Shown: positions 6,287 to 45,432, counted from the first letter of the whole stretch. The stretch: DNA of 62,825 nt, filler included, from Candidatus Huberarchaeum crystalense (GCA_002790315.1; 10 parts of 10 records of this genome joined end to end with filler, not necessarily neighbours in it); one strand, 5' to 3'. The notes: a model not told the origin generated them from the letters alone. A program made the numbers and translations.

Positions 6287-7156
6287 ATGGTTTTACTTGA
6301 AGTTTTTAATGTTAAAAAAGCTTACAATAATAAGATATATTTCGCTTTATATGTAGCAATTTTAATGATTGTATCGGCTTTGCTCTTAAAATATCTCTTT
6401 TTATATATTTATGGGGGCGATGTTACTCACAATTATTTTCTTTTGCTTGTGTGGGTTGGTATTTTTATGGCAATTATTCCAAAACTTTTTATAGAAGCAG
6501 AAGAGGTTTGTCCAATCAACTGGCATCCAATTCAAAAAAAATGGGTTGAGGGCTGCACTTTTATTGAACGGCACAAAGACATTCTTTTTATTTTTGTTAT
6601 ACTCTCAATCTTAATCACAATATTTTTCTTTACAATTTGCTATTTTAATGTGTTTGGGAGTAATTTTGGCGCGCCACAAAAGCAAGAAATTGAAAAAATT
6701 AAAGAGATTGCAACTTCTTTGTCTGGCTATGCAAAGAGCGACATTGGTGGTGGTTTTTGGGATAAATTTTCAATAATCTTTGCACAAAATACAAAAATAA
6801 GTATTTTATTTTTTCTATTATCAGTACTTGAAATGTTTGGCGCGCTCTTTTTATTAAGTTGGAATGCTTCTGTATTTGGCGTGTGGTTATCAGAAATCGC
6901 AAAGCAAGCATCTCAGCAAACAAACAATATAATCTTAATTTTAAGCACTTCGGCAACATCTTTTTTAGGGATTTTACCACACGCTATTTTTGAGTTTAGT
7001 GGGTTTTTTCTGGCTGCGATCGCAGGAGGAATTTTAGCAATAGGTATCCATTTATATAAAGATAATGCTCTCTTACTTCAGATTAAAGACAGTATTTTGG
7101 TTTTACTTGCAGGCCTGGTTTGCATACTTATAGGCGCAATTATTGAGGCATTATAA
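6287..7156 (+). CDS. SpoIIM/DUF95-family membrane protein
   Basis: Multiple TM helices; IF..N, WNA..FG, LPHAIFE..G..LA..AG and A.IE motifs. Confidence 0.75.
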   Translation: MVLLEVFNVKKAYNNKIYFALYVAILMIVSALLLKYLFLYIYGGDVTHNYFLLLVWVGIFMAIIPKLFIEAEEVCPINWHPIQKKWVEGCTFIERHKDILFIFVILSILITIFFFTICYFNVFGSNFGAPQKQEIEKIKEIATSLSGYAKSDIGGGFWDKFSIIFAQNTKISILFFLLSVLEMFGALFLLSWNASVFGVWLSEIAKQASQQTNNIILILSTSATSFLGILPHAIFEFSGFFLAAIAGGILAIGIHLYKDNALLLQIKDSILVLLAGLVCILIGAIIEAL

Positions 7157-7518
7157 TGATAACAGAAAGGAGTAAAGCAAAAATAAAAAAAATAGCACAA
7201 AATAAGCAAAAAGAAATAATTAAACAATTGCAAAAACAATCAATTGTCGAAGATTTGACAAATAAAGGATATACTTTAAAAGCAGGACTTAAATATGGTT
7301 GTGATTTTAGAATCTACGCAAAAGGAGTAGGGATAAAACAAGGAAAGAAAAAACAAGAAGAGCATAGTTTTGCTATATTAGATGTTGTTAAAGGCAAAGA
7401 CAGCATCAAAATTAAAGATCTTGTAGCAAAAGCTAGGGTTGCGCGCGCCACTAATATGAAATGGCTTATTAGTATTGACAAGAAAGAGTTGTTAGTAAAT
7501 GTTGGGTGGGTAGATTAA
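7156..7518 (+). CDS. endA: tRNA-splicing endonuclease, minimal catalytic-domain protein
   Basis: DL..KGY.LK.GLKYGCDFRIY, HS and RVA motifs of the catalytic C-terminal domain; only 120 aa. Confidence 0.8.
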   Translation: MITERSKAKIKKIAQNKQKEIIKQLQKQSIVEDLTNKGYTLKAGLKYGCDFRIYAKGVGIKQGKKKQEEHSFAILDVVKGKDSIKIKDLVAKARVARATNMKWLISIDKKELLVNVGWVD

Positions 7519-9311: not shown

Positions 9312-9707
9312 TCAAACACTATTTTTAAGAAACTGTTTACAGGTTTTGATTGTTCCTGAAACCAAAACACAATGAAGAAGAACTTCTTTTTCATTTATTT
9401 TTTTAATCCATCCAAATACAACTTTTAGTTTTTCCAAACTTGTGCGCGCAACTTGTATTATCATTTTGTTTTGTAAAGAAAAATTTGGAAAAAACCGAAG
9501 ATTTGCTTCAATAAAATCAATTTCTCCAAAAAGTTTAATATAAGTTATTTCTATTTCTCTTCTAAGATCATATGAGTTAATTTTTGCTTCACTCATAACT
9601 TCATAAACAACATAGCGCTTCTTATCTTGCAGCGTTGGTTTTGTTTTTACAAGTAAATTGTTTAGGGGTTTGGGTTTGCTATTTTTATCAAATGGTTTTG
9701 TTTTTAC
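9312..9707 (-). CDS. rnp2: RNase P protein component 2 (Pop5); start obscured by an N-gap
   Basis: The frame extends upstream of the track ORF to ...PTLQDKKRYVVYEV (Pop5 N-terminal motif); C-terminal VSGTIK. Confidence 0.85.
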   Translation of the reverse strand, partial: VKTKPFDKNSKPKPLNNLLVKTKPTLQDKKRYVVYEVMSEAKINSYDLRREIEITYIKLFGEIDFIEANLRFFPNFSLQNKMIIQVARTSLEKLKVVFGWIKKINEKEVLLHCVLVSGTIKTCKQFLKNSV

Positions 9708-9733: not shown

Positions 9734-10075
9734 TTATTCTAGTTTAACAGCAGTTCCATATGCTAAAATCTCAGTAGTTCCAGGTACTATGCTGTTGGTT
9801 TCATATCTTACACTAACAATTGCATCAGCACCCATTTTTCGAGATTCTTCGAGCATTCTCTCTGTGGCTTCGTTTCGCGCCCGAGTCAATAACACAGTGT
9901 AGGTTCCTATTTCTCCACCAATAATTGCTTTTAACCCTGCAGCAATATCTCTAACAAACCATCGCGCCCTTACTGTATTTCCTTGTACTAATCCAAGCAC
10001 CTTAGATATTTTTTTACCTTCTATTGAATGAGTAGTTGCCATAATTATTCTTTTTTCTACTTTACTTTCCACCAT
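9734..10075 (-). CDS. YbjQ/UPF0145 family protein
   Basis: TT..I.G..I...LG.V.G, GGE...Y..LL..AR..A..RM, GADAIV.VR, E..AYGTAV. Confidence 0.92.
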   Translation of the reverse strand: MVESKVEKRIIMATTHSIEGKKISKVLGLVQGNTVRARWFVRDIAAGLKAIIGGEIGTYTVLLTRARNEATERMLEESRKMGADAIVSVRYETNSIVPGTTEILAYGTAVKLE

Positions 10076-10219
10076 ATATTATTTATATAATTTGAATAAA
10101 TATTACAAGCTTTATAACAAGTAATGCATTCCACAAAAATAAGATATATATCTAAATTCTAAAGAAGTAGTGCTAATTAAAATAATTAAAATAAATGCAT
10201 TTGTTTTGGTAAAAAATCT

Positions 10220-10768
10220 ATGACAAATATTTATGTTTTTCGATTGGGTCATCGTTTTAGCAGAGACAAACGAATAACCACGCATATTGCTCTTGTGGCG
10301 CGCGCATTTGGAGCAAAAGCAGTTGTTTTTGATATAGAAGACAATCGCGTAAAAGATAGTGTTTATAAAATTTGCGATAAATGGGGTTATGGTCCATCAG
10401 GAGACTTTGAGATTTTTTATGAAAAAAATTGGAGAAAATTTATAAAAGATTTTGACGGAATAAAAATACATCTTACAATGTATGGTTTTTCTCTTTCAAA
10501 AGTTAAAGATAAAATATTAAAAGATATAAAAGACAAAAATATTTTAATAGTTGTAGGAGGGCAAAAAGTTCCTGGAGAAATATATAATCTTGTTGATTAT
10601 AATGTTGGTATAGGTAATCAGCCACATTCAGAAGTTGGCGCGTTGGCTGTTTTTCTGCATGAATTAAATGCAAAACCATTAGACGAAAACGAGTGGAATT
10701 GTAAAAAAAATCAAGGAAAAATAAGGATTTTTCCGCAGAAAAAAGGAAAAAAAGTTGCTAAAAGATAA
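10220..10768 (+). CDS. trm56: tRNA (cytidine(56)-2'-O)-methyltransferase aTrm56
   Basis: [45 protein letters not shown]. Confidence 0.95.
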
Positions 10769-10890
10769 ATATAAAAAAGTTATAGGTGTAAATTTGTCTT
10801 CAAAATAGCCCTTTTACCTTTTTGTAATAAACTTGCTTGCAAGGGTTTTTAAATAAAAAATACTAAAAAAAATATCCCTCTTTTTTTTAG

Positions 10891-10996
10891 GGGGCGTAAG
10901 CGCAGATCTGCGCCAGGTCTTTCAACCCAAGGCAACCGCTTTAAGCTCTTGTCAGCTTTTTAGCGCTGGCATTTGCCGAGATCTACGCTTACGTGT
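10891..10996 (-). ncRNA. Candidate structured RNA (long closing stem, multiloop, possible pseudoknot)
   Basis: GC-rich island. 15-bp closing stem CGUAAGCGUAGAUCU/AGAUCUGCGCUUACG with a G-U pair on the minus strand; inner GCCAG/CUGGC; two hairpins, one GAAA-capped. Confidence 0.55.
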
Positions 10997-11248
10997 TTGT
11001 GTTTTTACTATTTTTTATTTACGCTTATGTGTTTGTGTTTTTTATATCTTTATTAGTTGTTGCAATATTGTAAAGGTAATAAATATTGCTGCTTGTCATC
11101 AACAATATATTACTGTTACGAAAAGCCACCACTCATTGCGATTACATCGCGAGTGATGACAGTTGCGTGGCTGAAAAGAGGTAATAGGAAAAGCATTTCG
11201 CGCCCTTTTTAAATAACCTCTTATAAAGATATTATATACTAAATATAT

Positions 11249-11416
11249 AAAATAATAGCTTCGCTTCAATAATCTGCGTGAATTTGGGGAAATTCTCGTA
11301 TTTTGCGTTTTGTGAAGTTGTTGTTTTGTCAACCAGTTACGTTCTGACTCTTGGGGAAGAGCTTGAAGAACATGACTACAAACTCAAACATTCTTGGGGA
11401 AGAAATGTTATTTTTT
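11249..11416 (+). ncRNA. Candidate ~165-nt RNA with three GGGG-loop hairpins and a K-turn
   Basis: Three different stems are each capped by UU-GGGG-AA; 16-bp basal stem with 4 G-U pairs; TTATAAA at 11221 and a T-run at 11411-11416. Confidence 0.6.
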
Positions 11417-11676
11417 AGATCAATATAATTTATTTAGTTGAGGGTATTTAAAAACCCCCCTCTATAAAAAATCAAAATACACAACAAAAAAATAAAAAAC
11501 AAAGAAGAAAAGGTGCAGTTAGAACTATTTTTCAATAAATCCTTCCTTCAAAAAAAGAAGGAAAAAAATAGTTTTAGAGCTCAATTTTAAAGCTATTTTC
11601 GCTAAAAAAGCGAAAATATATCAAAGCACTGCTTTGATGCTCGATGCTCTTTACTTCAAAAAAACAAGGAGGAAAA

Positions 11677-12798
11677 ATGTCATTCTTATTAAAAAAAGCA
11701 GAAGAAATAGCAGATATCCGAAAGGGTGAGTTCACATCAAAATTTAACGAAGCCCCATCAGTCAAAATAATAGTTTTTGGCTGTGGTGGTGCTGGGTCAA
11801 ACGCAGCGACAAACATATTTTCGCGCAATATGCCTGGTGTCACAGTTGTAGCGGCAAATACAGATGCTCAGCATCTAAATGAAAGAACCAGAGCAAATCA
11901 AAAAATATTGCTTGGTGCAGAGGTAACAAAAGGCAGGGGCGCAGGAGGTATAATGGGTATTGGCGGCGCTGCTGCTGAAGCAAGTATTCAAGAAATAAAA
12001 AACGCATTAAAAGGATCTGATCTTGTTTTCATCACAGCAGGTATGGGTGGAGGAACAGGAACAGGCACAGCGCCAATAGTGGCAAAAGCAGCAAAAGATC
12101 TAGGTGCTTTGGTAATTTCTATAATAACAATGCCTTTTTCTATGGAGTGCGGGCGCATCGGCACTGCAATTAGCGGTTTAGCAAAACTTAGAGAATTTTC
12201 AGATACAGTAACAGTGATTGACAACAACAGAATCACAGATGTATTTGGGGATTTACCTTGCAGAAATGCATTTGCTATGGCAGATACAATAATCACAACA
12301 TCGATTGAAGGAATTGCTACAACAGTGAACAATGTTGGTGAAATTAACTTAGATTTCTCTGACTTAAGAAGAATTTTTGAGACAGGCGGAACATTGGCAA
12401 CTGTCGGTGTTGGAGAAAAAAATAGCTCAGAAGCAAAAACAGAAGAAGAAAGTGTTGAAGCTGCTGTAAAGCAAGCACTATCTTCACCATTGTTAGACAT
12501 CACTTATGAAGGAGCAACAGGCGCACTTGTGGATATTACTGTTGGCACAAAAGTAAGGTTAAGAAACTTCACAAGAGTTGGTGAAATGATCGCATCCAAA
12601 ATGGATCCTGGTGCAATAAATATGGTTGGATTAAGAGTTTCTCCAGATATGGGTGAACACGGCGTCAGAGTAATTACTACTATCACAGGTGTGTCATCAC
12701 CGCAAATACTCAATCAAAAAAGTGAGTATGAGCAGGTTTTAGAGCGAAAAAACATTCTGAAGAGCAAGCTTGGACTTGACGCAATTGAGATAGATTAA
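11677..12798 (+). CDS. ftsZ: Cell division protein FtsZ (FtsZ2-like)
   Basis: GCGGAGSN, NTDAQHL, GMGGGTGTG, DNN, T7 loop INLDFSD; GGAGG SD before the ATG at 11677. The FtsZ2 assignment is tentative (PF..E..R spacing, C-terminal GLD.I). Confidence 0.96.
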   Translation: MSFLLKKAEEIADIRKGEFTSKFNEAPSVKIIVFGCGGAGSNAATNIFSRNMPGVTVVAANTDAQHLNERTRANQKILLGAEVTKGRGAGGIMGIGGAAAEASIQEIKNALKGSDLVFITAGMGGGTGTGTAPIVAKAAKDLGALVISIITMPFSMECGRIGTAISGLAKLREFSDTVTVIDNNRITDVFGDLPCRNAFAMADTIITTSIEGIATTVNNVGEINLDFSDLRRIFETGGTLATVGVGEKNSSEAKTEEESVEAAVKQALSSPLLDITYEGATGALVDITVGTKVRLRNFTRVGEMIASKMDPGAINMVGLRVSPDMGEHGVRVITTITGVSSPQILNQKSEYEQVLERKNILKSKLGLDAIEID

Positions 12799-12819
12799 AA
12801 ACAACAAACAACACACTGC

Positions 12820-12889
12820 AAAACAACAAACAAACATATTTCCTTTCAAAGAGGGCAAAATCAAGATGTTTGTGTTTGTTTGTTGTTTT
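12820..12889. repeat. Perfect 17-bp inverted repeat just 3' of ftsZ
   Basis: aaaacaacaaacaaaca (12820-12836) / tgtttgtttgttgtttt (12873-12889). Confidence 0.75.
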
Positions 12890-13313
12890 AGCACAGTTTA
12901 AGTTAAAGGTCGCTTAAAATTACACTACCTATCTAAAAAATATATAGATTTTTTCATTTAAAATATACAAAATACTAACATAATCAAAATTATTTTACNN
13001 NNNNNNNTTTTGTTCATTCACTCAAAAAAATCTGTTATACATAACTGTATATAAAGAAAAGATTAATTCCTTTATTTTCTAAAATTTTTATATATTCTTT
13101 AATTCCATTATAAATTTCTGTTTTCCTTTAATATAGATAACATCACTACATAATATTTTAACTACATATGTTGCGATCCACTCCATTTTATTTTTTAGTG
13201 TTTTTGCTATAATATCCTTTAACAAATAATTTAAAAACTTCACTTTTGTTTTGGTATTTAAGCGCGCGCCTTTTCGCGATATATTTGTCAGACAACAAAC
13301 ATCAAAAAATTAT

Positions 13314-13385
13314 GGGCGAGTAGATCAACGGTAGATCGCTACATTGGCGTTGTAGAGGTTCTGGGTTCAAATCCCTGCTCGTCCA
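13314..13385 (+). tRNA. tRNA-Ala(GGC)
   Basis: Acceptor GGGCGAG/CTCGTCC-A with G3:U70; anticodon arm CTACA-TTGGCGT-TGTAG; T loop TTCAAAT. Confidence 0.93.
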
Positions 13386-13517
13386 TTTAAACCAATCAAT
13401 TTACAATATTTTGAGTGTTCTGTTTAAATAATTTTAAATTGTTTAAGCAGATTAACTTTTATCCTTAAATAGGTGTGAATTATTTTATTTTGACTGTTCA
13501 AAAAATTTAGCTTTAAA

Positions 13518-13719
13518 AATGCAGGGGCAGGAGTGAGTTATGCAAAACGCACAACAGCGCCAAATAATGCAAGGAGCAGGAGTGAGTTATGCAAAACGCA
13601 CAACAACTCCGCGATGCGGACTTAAACCTGCGAAGATTTATGTTAAATTTATGTTAATATTATTATATTTATATGAAGAGCAGGCGCGAGTTGTGAAAAC
13701 ACGCAACAGTATTCAATAA
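13518..13719 (-). repeat. tRNA-Leu-linked repeats (copies of the tRNA 3' end plus trailer)
   Basis: On +: aatgcaggggcagga (13518) and aatgcaaggagcagga (13566, identical to 13718-13733), plus a degenerate third unit near 13673. Confidence 0.8.
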
Positions 13720-13802
13720 TGCAAGGAGCAGGATTTGAACCTGCGAAAGCTTACGCTACAAGGTCCTAAACCTTGCCCCTTTGACCACTCGGGAACCCTT
13801 GC
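13720..13802 (-). tRNA. tRNA-Leu(TAG)
   Basis: Acceptor GCAAGGG/TCCTTGC-A; anticodon arm CAAGG-TTTAGGA-CCTTG; long variable arm; T arm GCAGG-TTCAAAT-CCTGC. Confidence 0.94.
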
Positions 13803-14114
13803 TTTGCGGGTGCTATTGTTGTTTTAAACAATAGACGCCTCAAAATGCTTTGCACTTTGACTCTTGCTTGCCACTTAATTTTTTTACTTGCAAAATATAA
13901 ACTTTTTAAATTTTTCAGCTTTTTCAGCTGAATCTATAACCTATTTTTTAATATTTATTTGAGTATATGTGTTTTTTATAAATATGTGTTAGTTATAAAT
14001 AGTAGATTGTTATAATATATTCCTAAAAACATTTTTAAATTCTTTGACCTGCAAATTTACAAAGTTATAGAGCAAACTTTACATTTATACTTTGCAAAGC
14101 TTTATAAATAATTT

Positions 14115-31345: not shown

Positions 31346-31557
31346 ATAAATTTTTAAGATTTGGTTTTTTGTTTGCTTTTTTTATTTGGGTTATTTATCA
31401 GTGATTTTTGTAATTTTGTTAGAGTTTATTTATTTATTTTTGGTTTTTTGTTTGCTTTTTTGTCTTTTTTATTAATTCTGCTTTTTGTTTTTTCTTGCCT
31501 TTGTGTCTTTTAATTTTTGCTTATTTGTTTGTTTTTATCTATTTTTATTTGTTTGTT

Positions 31558-32441
31558 TTAATATTTTATTTTTTCTTTTTTTATCTTTTTTTGCTCTTGT
31601 TTTGTTTTTTCTTTTTTTATCTTTTTTTGCTCTTGCTCTTGCTCTTTTGTCCTCCTTCTCTTTTGGTNNNNNNNNNNNNNNNNGTGATATTTATCTTGCT
31701 GTTTTAGCCAAAATTTATATATTACTCCCAACACAATTATTATTACACTTAATAATAGCCACCAATACCAGCAAAAAATAAAGACAATGCCGCACCCGAA
31801 GCTAAAAAAACAACAATTTAAAGAATTATTTATTTTGTTTATTATGTTGTCAATAGGTTCTGAGTAAATATCAGTTATTTGCGAAGATGCTGTTAAATTA
31901 CCTTTTGTTGCTGTTATATCGCGCATTCCTAAAAACCCAGTAAATGTTGCTTTTCCATTTTTGTCTGTTGTTTTTGTTTGATTTCCATAAATAACTGTTG
32001 CATCCTCCACCACATGGTTTTTATCATCTATAATAATTATTGTAAATTCTCTACCTTTAAACACTTTTTGAGGCGACAACACAATAGCAATTGATTGAAC
32101 AACATCAAATACACAATCAGATGGGCAGGTTTCATTTTCACCCTCACTACATATTTTGTCACCGCAAAACGCTTTAATACAATTTTTGACAGAAATGTTA
32201 TATTCTTGTCTGTTGCCAATGTGTATAAATACTAACAAGTGTTTACCTTCTGTGGTTATAAAAGTAATTTTGCCGTTGCGGTCAGTATATCCAATCCTTT
32301 TTCCGTCGAGAAAAACTCCAAAATCACTATAAGGAAACTTGATTGTAATATTTTCACCTGCGCACAAATCAGTTAAATAAGTTAAATTGTAATTAAGTTT
32401 ATCCCCACTACTAACAGCTCCACCACCTCCACTTCCTCCAC
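31558..32441 (-). CDS. Cell-surface protein, C-terminal part (5'-truncated)
   Basis: Frame open to the contig edge; Gly/Ser linker, T..NG...F beta-sandwich repeats, CGD..CS.GE...CPSDC, CC....C......CWYWW plus TM helix, Lys/Glu tail containing an N-gap. Confidence 0.75.
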
Positions 32442-45161: not shown

Positions 45162-45432
45162 TGTGTGGGTGCTATGCTGGGCGGTTCGGCCTCGCTTGTT
45201 ACCTAAGTGGTCGTTAAGGAGCGAAAGCTAACCAAGGGGCGCGCTTAGCAAAGTGCTTTTCTATGAGCAAAGATCTTCAACCAAGCAGGAGCATTACACA
45301 ATTAACCAGGCCAGGTCAGGAATGAAGCAGCCTTATATTTGCGTGGTGTTGTCTGTTTGTCATTGAAAGGAGTTTTTAGAAGAGATTAACATTTTGTTGG
45401 GTTGGGTTTCAAAGTTGGCGCGCGCCTACACA
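45162..45432 (+). ncRNA. ffs: Archaeal SRP (7S) RNA
   Basis: Helix-8 motif GG-CCAGG-UCA-GGAA-UGA-AGCA-GCC; terminal helix tgtgtgggtgc/gcgcctacaca; Alu-like 5' region. Confidence 0.88.

Follow-up and report, generated by a model that had tools for sequence, protein, structure and literature searches.

A strongly expressed, structured RNA without a known family beside ftsZ in a DPANN-like archaeon

Introduction

What is transcribed from the 908-nt spacer (10769-11676) that precedes ftsZ in the genome of an uncultivated, DPANN-like archaeon? A first-pass annotation, made from the sequence alone, had placed a small plus-strand RNA there, with three GGGG-capped hairpins, one of them carrying a K-turn. 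To our knowledge, the catalogue of non-coding RNAs from DPANN-type archaea holds little apart from rRNA, tRNA, SRP RNA, and RNase P RNA, and a literature search on DPANN non-coding RNA in metatranscriptomes returned no relevant title or abstract. The window analysed here, i.e., the whole stretch of DNA to which all positions refer, is 62.8 kb long and has a G+C content of 32%. We found that the spacer holds a real, strongly expressed, and structured RNA without a known family. The sequence-only reading had picked the right place and a non-random motif, and probably the wrong strand and the wrong ends.

Genomic setting of the locus

The two genes that flank the spacer share the plus orientation, with the gene for the Trm56 tRNA methyltransferase on the left (10220-10768, Pfam E 3e-37) and ftsZ on the right, with its ATG at 11677 and a GGAGG ahead of it. 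At 1.4 kb from the RNA locus is a gene for the RNase P protein Rpp14/Pop5 (9312-9596, minus strand, E 2.5e-10), and the same neighbourhood encodes a 120-aa tRNA-intron endonuclease catalytic-domain protein (7156-7518, plus strand), YbjQ, GatB, tRNA-Ala, tRNA-Leu, and S15. The Rpp14/Pop5, endonuclease-domain, and Trm56 genes make up a tRNA-processing cluster that adjoins the RNA locus. The closest FtsZ match beyond the organism's own cluster has 88% identity and is labelled uncultured euryarchaeote; the remaining relatives have at most 50% identity and are mostly labelled Woesearchaeota or Nanoarchaeota.

Transcripts over the locus

The stretch or part of it is present in 23 of 24 public runs, four of which are metatranscriptomes, from four studies. 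We placed the contigs of these four runs on positions 10000-13900. Each run has one deep contig over the locus, with zero or one mismatch:

11000-11425, run X20: mean word depth 852.6; deepest ftsZ contig 8.84
11000-11393, run X23: mean word depth 452.2; deepest ftsZ contig 7.4
10936-11419, run X22: mean word depth 271.1; deepest ftsZ contig 5.3
10974-11407, run X21: mean word depth 72.1; deepest ftsZ contig 4.12

The ftsZ contigs as a whole have depths of 2.5-8.84 and zero to four mismatches. Within single runs the locus is 17- to 96-fold deeper than ftsZ, contig depth being a poor measure of expression; the transcript thus stands one to two orders of magnitude above a housekeeping mRNA in contig depth in four environmental samples. 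Adapter letters abut the 11000/11001 boundary in X20 and X23 and follow position 11393 in X23 and 11407 in X21. Because of these junctions and the extents of the contigs, we place the main RNA between about 11001 and 11393-11425, with a length of about 425 nt:

11001-11425, probably minus strand: abundant transcript in its mature form, from the four RNA contigs

The deep contigs in all four RNA runs bear out the proposal that the three hairpins belong to a transcribed, structured, and unannotated non-coding RNA. The transcript predicted for them, 11249-11416 (168 nt), is too short: the contigs give an RNA 2.5 times longer, and a start at 11249 is contradicted by their inclusion of a 190-nt multi-branch domain further upstream. 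The suggested link to ftsZ is not supported either: no contig connects the RNA with that gene. Contigs are absent from 10000-10916 and nearly absent from 11441-11700, and we count these uncovered flanks neither as proof of silence nor as an argument against DNA carry-over. RNAs shorter than about 130 nt may be lost from the libraries, because the tRNA genes at 13313-13386 are uncovered as well; a separate small RNA from the spacer, on either strand, may have been lost in the same way, be it from the four-way-junction domain described below or a plus-strand sRNA.

Three hairpins with a common loop

All three GGGG-capped hairpins of the first-pass annotation are present, each with a different, fully paired stem:

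11280-11295, either strand: hairpin 1, GAATTT-GGGG-AAATTC
11348-11361, either strand: core of hairpin 2, CTCTT-GGGG-AAGAG
11391-11404, either strand: hairpin 3, TTCTT-GGGG-AAGAA, which reads UUCUU-CCCC-AAGAA on the minus strand

They can fold on either strand because their 16 stem pairs contain no G-U. Perfect hairpins with at least five Watson-Crick pairs and a 4-nt loop number 124 in the window; just three of them have a GGGG or CCCC loop, all within 11286-11399. When the three hairpins are aligned, pairing is kept in 15 of 15 cells and both sides have changed in three of the five pairs, as the claim of co-varying stems had it; 7 of 500 shuffles reach the same covariation score, which describes paralogous copies at one locus and not homologues among species. 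The arms vary around a constant 4-nt centre with constant U-A closing pairs. Since loop and closing pairs are identical while the stems change by compensation, the loops are probably recognition sites, and this pattern of constant centre and varying arms suggests an RNA hairpin with a recognised loop rather than a dimeric DNA-binding site.

The count of the 8-mer TTGGGGAA by itself is not significant (four are present, and 22 of 100 shuffles have at least four). A blastn search for paralogues within the window returned low-complexity, GT-rich matches only (e.g., 31508-31568). Among viral contigs, 49 stretches have the triple TTGGGGAA pattern; those inspected resemble unrelated tandem repeats, and the sequences flanking the 8-mer mostly pair over 2-4 bp, with at least 5 bp in L020, L025, L038, and L041.

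Architecture of the RNA

The whole region 11001-11425 has a G+C content of 32% and folds better than its shuffles on both strands (z -3.96 on the minus and -2.65 on the plus strand). Four elements lie at or beyond its left part:

11040-11236, minus strand: central multi-branch domain, closed by a 10-bp Watson-Crick helix (11044-11053 with 11223-11232)
10889-11000, minus strand: four-way-junction domain of 112 nt with 50% G+C, beyond the sharp end at 11001
10855-10872: A6 and A8 runs, which read U8 and then U6 on the minus strand, just past the four-way-junction domain
10981-11051: tandem direct repeat with a unit of about 35 nt and 86% identity, spanning the end at 11001

On the minus strand, the central domain forms a five-way junction of -54.4 kcal/mol with a centroid of -53.6 (z -5.90; none of 200 shuffles is as good). 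The plus strand reaches -47.6 kcal/mol with a centroid of only -29.7 (z -3.10), i.e., an ill-defined ensemble. The TTATAAA at 11221-11227, which had been read as a TATA box, is where it was reported, and in the folds of both strands it is one arm of the closing helix, paired with 11044-11053; its reading as a TATA box is not supported.

The four-way-junction domain likewise folds better on the minus strand (z -5.09 versus -2.49), with an uninterrupted 15-bp closing helix and a GAAA loop on one arm. It has no Rfam match and is covered in part only, by the X21 and X22 contigs. The domain could be a small RNA in its own right, or else serve in processing or termination. A primary transcript of the minus strand might terminate at the U8 and U6 runs just past it. 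GT-rich low-complexity tracts (CA-rich on the other strand) like that of 10981-11051 occur in other spacers of the window as well, e.g., at 31427-31636.

Strand of the abundant RNA

The features that bear on the strand are the following:

11445-11454, minus strand: TATA-box-like TTTTTAAATA, directed into the RNA and located outside it, its edge 20 nt from where the deepest contig ends
11206-11237, plus strand: 32-nt element, 81% complementary to 11423-11454, i.e., the same sequence on the opposite strand
11247-11329, plus strand: long hairpin with 18 uninterrupted pairs (11247-11264 with 11312-11329) below hairpin 1
11335-11377: extended hairpin around hairpin 2, on the plus strand with 5+5+5 bp and a GA/CUU-GA loop, followed by ACA
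11411-11416, plus strand: T6 run directly after hairpin 3, a candidate plus-strand terminator

The abundant RNA is probably the minus strand. What we take to be the read-1-side adapter is on the left, and the presumed read-2-side adapter on the right, in four of four junctions. As the read-1-side adapter is always on the left, the first mate reads the plus strand; in most stranded libraries the first mate is opposite to the RNA, which gives the minus strand, and with a kit whose first mate is sense the RNA would be the plus strand. Adapter orientation and the folding of two of the three domains both disfavour the plus-strand RNA of the first-pass annotation. An exact TTTAAATA on the minus strand (11452-11445), just outside 11425, is further in favour of the minus strand as a putative promoter box. 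It is one of 26 occurrences of TTTAAATA in the 125.6 kb of both strands, three of which are in the locus. A G/C triplet followed by TTTTTAAATA has three copies in the window, all in the locus (10843-10855, 11203-11215, and 11445-11457), and short inverted repeats, GAGG(G)/CC(C)TC, flank every copy. A scan for sigma-70 promoters and intrinsic terminators is uninformative for an archaeal host. Runs of T5 or longer in 10889-11425 number zero on the minus and six on the plus strand, which is weak strand evidence because such runs occur at 4.25 per kb on the sense strands of ORFs. Strand-specific G-U pairs are balanced, with 11 on the plus strand and nine on the minus strand, where the central-domain helix 11127-11134 with 11151-11158 is an example. 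No U-run marks position 11001, so that a minus-strand RNA ending there would need an unexplained processing step. If the minus strand is the RNA, its loops read CCCC, and neither the K-turn nor the G-U stem would exist.

These last features form on the plus strand only and, together with the T-run and the element at 11206-11237, are not easily set aside. The 16-bp stem with four G-U pairs described below hairpin 1 is present and extends to 18 pairs with five G-U. It is one of three helices of at least 18 pairs on either strand of the window, and the second longest of them; its minus-strand equivalent shrinks to 5-6 pairs. A variant in runs X22 and X23 (11262 C>T) would turn a C-G pair of this helix into U-G on the plus strand. 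Hairpin 2 reads GUUCU-GA-[stem]-CUU-GA-AGAAC, as had been reported, with ACA at 11378-11380 and again at 11388-11390. The K-turn sequence pattern, in which a 3-nt bulge and then tandem G-A/A-G pairs stand between a canonical and a non-canonical stem, occurs on the plus strand at 11341-11371; motifs of this kind with 5+5 flanking pairs number eight in the 125.6 kb of both strands of the window. Read as the minus strand, these bases belong to a hairpin (11335-11377) of 7+6 bp that includes two G-U pairs and a 4x1 internal loop. The predicted T-run after the last hairpin is the T6 at 11411-11416. Of the three domains, the three-hairpin segment is the one that favours the plus strand: 11221-11416 folds better there (-46.7 kcal/mol, z -3.04; 2 of 200 shuffles are as good) than on the minus strand (-29.8 kcal/mol, z -2.07).

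We weighed the reading in which the abundant RNA is a plus-strand molecule from 11001 to the T-run at 11411-11416, i.e., the RNA of the first-pass annotation extended by 250 nt on its 5' side, as the RNA of a ribonucleoprotein, with an L7Ae-type K-turn and three GGGG loops. The plus-only 18-bp G-U helix agrees with it, as do the K-turn-like loop with its 5-bp stems on either side, the 11262 variant that retains a pair as U-G, the hairpin followed by T6 at the right end, the T before G11001 (as at a start site), and the sharp left and ragged right ends, which suit a 5' and a 3' end, respectively. It is nevertheless unlikely: the adapter orientation is contrary to most stranded kits, a TATA-like element was not found 20-35 nt before 11001, three T5-T6 runs fall in the first 45 nt, plus-strand folding is clearly poorer for the central and four-way-junction domains, and the deepest contig extends 9 nt beyond the T-run.

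A rather unlikely alternative lets both strands be transcribed, a long minus RNA and, on the plus strand, an sRNA about 180 nt in size (~11234-11416), from two facing copies of a core promoter. The 32-nt element at 11206-11237 is possibly such a plus-strand promoter, with a start near 11234-11236, and its inverted counterpart at 11423-11454 covers the interval between the TTTTTAAATA box and 11425, where the transcript was seen to end. Hairpins on both RNAs would then show complementary GGGG and CCCC loops, as in antisense control by kissing loops. This arrangement would explain why plus-only and minus-only features coexist. It also fits the 81% likeness of the two inverted arms from TATA-like box to transcript end, the confinement of all three S-S-S-TTTTTAAATA copies in the window to the locus, and the 16 stem pairs free of G-U, and a plus RNA from about 11234 would hold exactly the three hairpins and end at the T6 run. 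Against it, all four adapter junctions share one orientation, so that no read supports a second strand, 4-nt loops are small for kissing contacts, and the repeat could be a chance match in A+T-rich DNA (blastn E 0.009 within the window). We also know of no chromosomal sense/antisense kissing-loop module of such a kind in archaea. That such a pair would work as a switch or titration device beside ftsZ and tRNA-processing genes, its plus RNA carrying an L7Ae-type K-turn, is doubtful to a like degree.

Plasmid systems offer a precedent for the two-strand arrangement: as in ColE1 RNA I/RNA II and R1 CopA/CopT, either strand of our locus can form three stem-loops, whose loops are complementary between the strands, and promoter-like elements face each other; unlike them, our locus is chromosomal, has 4-nt loops, and has a second transcript that is hypothetical.

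Comparison with known RNA families

At gathering thresholds, Rfam 15 has seven matches in the window (six tRNAs and one SRP fragment, with no rRNA), none of them in the spacer 10769-11676. With E up to 10 on both strands, the best matches within 11001-11425 score 14.6-18.3 bits and none is credible; the strongest score in a scan of 10700-11700 is 23.8 bits at 11536-11657, outside the transcript. None of the 4227 families matches the RNA on either strand, in line with its proposed novelty. The same library finds the SRP RNA of the organism (45165-45429, plus strand, 77.2 bits, E 1.4e-17, 48% G+C), so the divergence of the lineage alone fails to explain why Rfam is silent at the locus.

The SRP RNA itself stays below the Archaea_SRP gathering score of 96.5 and leaves about 40 model positions unaligned, which suggests a reduced form; at gathering thresholds Rfam lists its core alone, under 'bacterial small SRP'.

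Given its Rpp14/Pop5 gene, this organism must possess an RNase P RNA, and none was detected anywhere in the window. POP5 serves as a proxy for the ribonucleoprotein form of RNase P, and HARP was not found in DPANN archaea, according to PMC6380272. Could the locus encode the missing RNA in a form too divergent for Rfam? The Rpp14/Pop5 gene is 1.4 kb away, the tRNA endonuclease and Trm56 genes are close by, and size class, abundance, and a multi-branch, multi-domain fold agree with archaeal RNase P RNA (RF00373). This identity is very improbable all the same. No RNase P model matches either strand at E up to 10, whereas the SRP RNA scores 77 bits; the G+C content is low (32%, versus 48% for the SRP RNA); by eye, against the consensus, there is no recognisable P4 with a bulged U and no CR-I/CR-V core; and the domains follow one another in series and are not nested inside P1-P4.

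The first-pass annotation had also raised an atypical H/ACA guide. In H/ACA guide RNAs, an internal loop between lower and upper stem serves as the pseudouridylation pocket, the upper stem carries a K-turn or K-loop, and the ACA lies about 14-16 nt from the top of the pocket. Archaeal H/ACA sRNAs resemble the plus strand of our locus in having a hairpin whose K-turn-like internal loop is close to the tip, an ACA directly 3' of the stem, and several hairpins in a row. Hairpin 2, however, has just a C-A 1x1 mismatch between two 5-bp stems in place of a pocket, and its K-turn-like loop is 10 bp from the ACA, which is the wrong spacing. The loop of hairpin 1 is pocket-like, but it stands on an 18-bp lower stem and comes with neither a K-turn nor an ACA. 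The H/ACA guide is thus contradicted by both pocket and spacing. A box C/D reading, which calls for C and D boxes joined by a terminal stem together with internal C'/D' boxes and 12-nt guides, fares no better: GUGAUGA (11153) and CUGA (11171) lie 11 nt apart, and there is no terminal or flanking stem, no second box pair, and no Rfam match. We regard a guide RNA of either class as extremely improbable, although hairpin 2 with its K-turn-like loop and the ACA directly 3' of its stem point that way, as do the two box-like motifs; pocket, spacing, and box arrangement all fail, no snoRNA-type family of Rfam matches, and the RNA, at 425 nt, includes a large additional domain and probably runs antisense to the K-turn and box motifs.

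The order of the two motifs in 11153-11174 on the plus strand is like that of a C box, a guide, and a D' box.

The locus has no ATG-initiated ORF of at least 30 aa. The longest ORF, of 77 aa with a TTG start on the minus strand, has not a single word in common with a set of 5.8 billion proteins. An mRNA that encodes at least one very small peptide, e.g., a toxin-like hydrophobic peptide with an antisense partner, would fit minus-strand ATG ORFs of about 20-26 codons with hydrophobic starts, which can be picked out by eye. It is a highly unlikely reading, given that these ORFs have no Shine-Dalgarno-like motif ahead, the longest ORF is without homologues, and strong structure extends throughout the RNA.

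Proposed structure and function of the RNA

The explanation that we prefer overall, with moderate confidence, is a stable, abundant, structured minus-strand RNA of about 425 nt, non-coding and outside the described families. It would start at about 11424-11426, downstream of the TTTTTAAATA box, pass through three CCCC-loop hairpins joined by C/A-rich single-stranded linkers, and then form the well-defined multi-branch domain (11232-11044) before it stops sharply at 11001, its 3' end. Some molecules, a minority, would be longer and read on into the G+C-rich four-way-junction domain toward the putative U8/U6 terminator. Transcription, the approximate ends, the sequence features, and the absence of an Rfam match are observed, and the strand, promoter, terminator, and processing at 11001 are inferred. 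From its architecture, the most likely function would be that of a multivalent scaffold for a protein or a complementary nucleic acid, or a decoy for either; a stable scaffold or decoy is our best guess for the role.

Repeated-loop RNAs of bacteria are similar in general design. CsrB/RsmZ and CrcZ are likewise abundant RNAs of a few hundred nucleotides with one short motif repeated in hairpin loops and, if our RNA is the minus strand, share with it A/C-rich single-stranded linkers. They differ in the motif itself: the many GGA loops that, with a CsrA/RsmA partner, define CsrB/RsmZ-type RNAs, or an A-rich CA motif, have no counterpart here, where three copies of GGGG or CCCC are found in an archaeal host. 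The staphylococcal RNAIII/RsaE-type RNAs are similar to the minus strand in combining a long abundant RNA with three C-rich-loop hairpins, but they belong to another domain of life and their loops pair with Shine-Dalgarno sequences. We considered C-rich loops as anti-Shine-Dalgarno elements and rejected the idea: GGGG is present in the 22 nt upstream of none of 44 ORF starts, and any of the six Shine-Dalgarno-like motifs searched is present at five of the 44.

If confirmed in relatives, the RNA would found a new family in small-genome symbiotic archaea, and its three identical loops would be a handle for finding the partner.

Relatives of the locus and neighbouring observations

We scanned for relatives by way of FtsZ. 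The scan of genome contigs with the FtsZ peptide gave 290 stretches and two loci, both bacterial, at 44% identity, and that of viral contigs with an FtsZ alignment gave 120 stretches, none of them related. Among metagenome contigs (426 stretches), four loci were found, one a relative at 44% and three of them copies at 99-100%, in which the intergenic region is identical in 912 of 912 columns.

Upstream of the 44 ORF starts in the window, Shine-Dalgarno-like motifs are rare, and TATA-like hexamers are most frequent at positions -14 and -12 relative to the first ATG (9 of 44 starts); this would mean that many ORFs truly start elsewhere than at their first ATG, or else that the geometry from promoter to start is unusual. 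Directly after the stop codon of ftsZ, a near-perfect inverted repeat of 18-19 bp (12820-12889) folds into the window's longest helix, on either strand alike; it is likely a terminator or processing hairpin.
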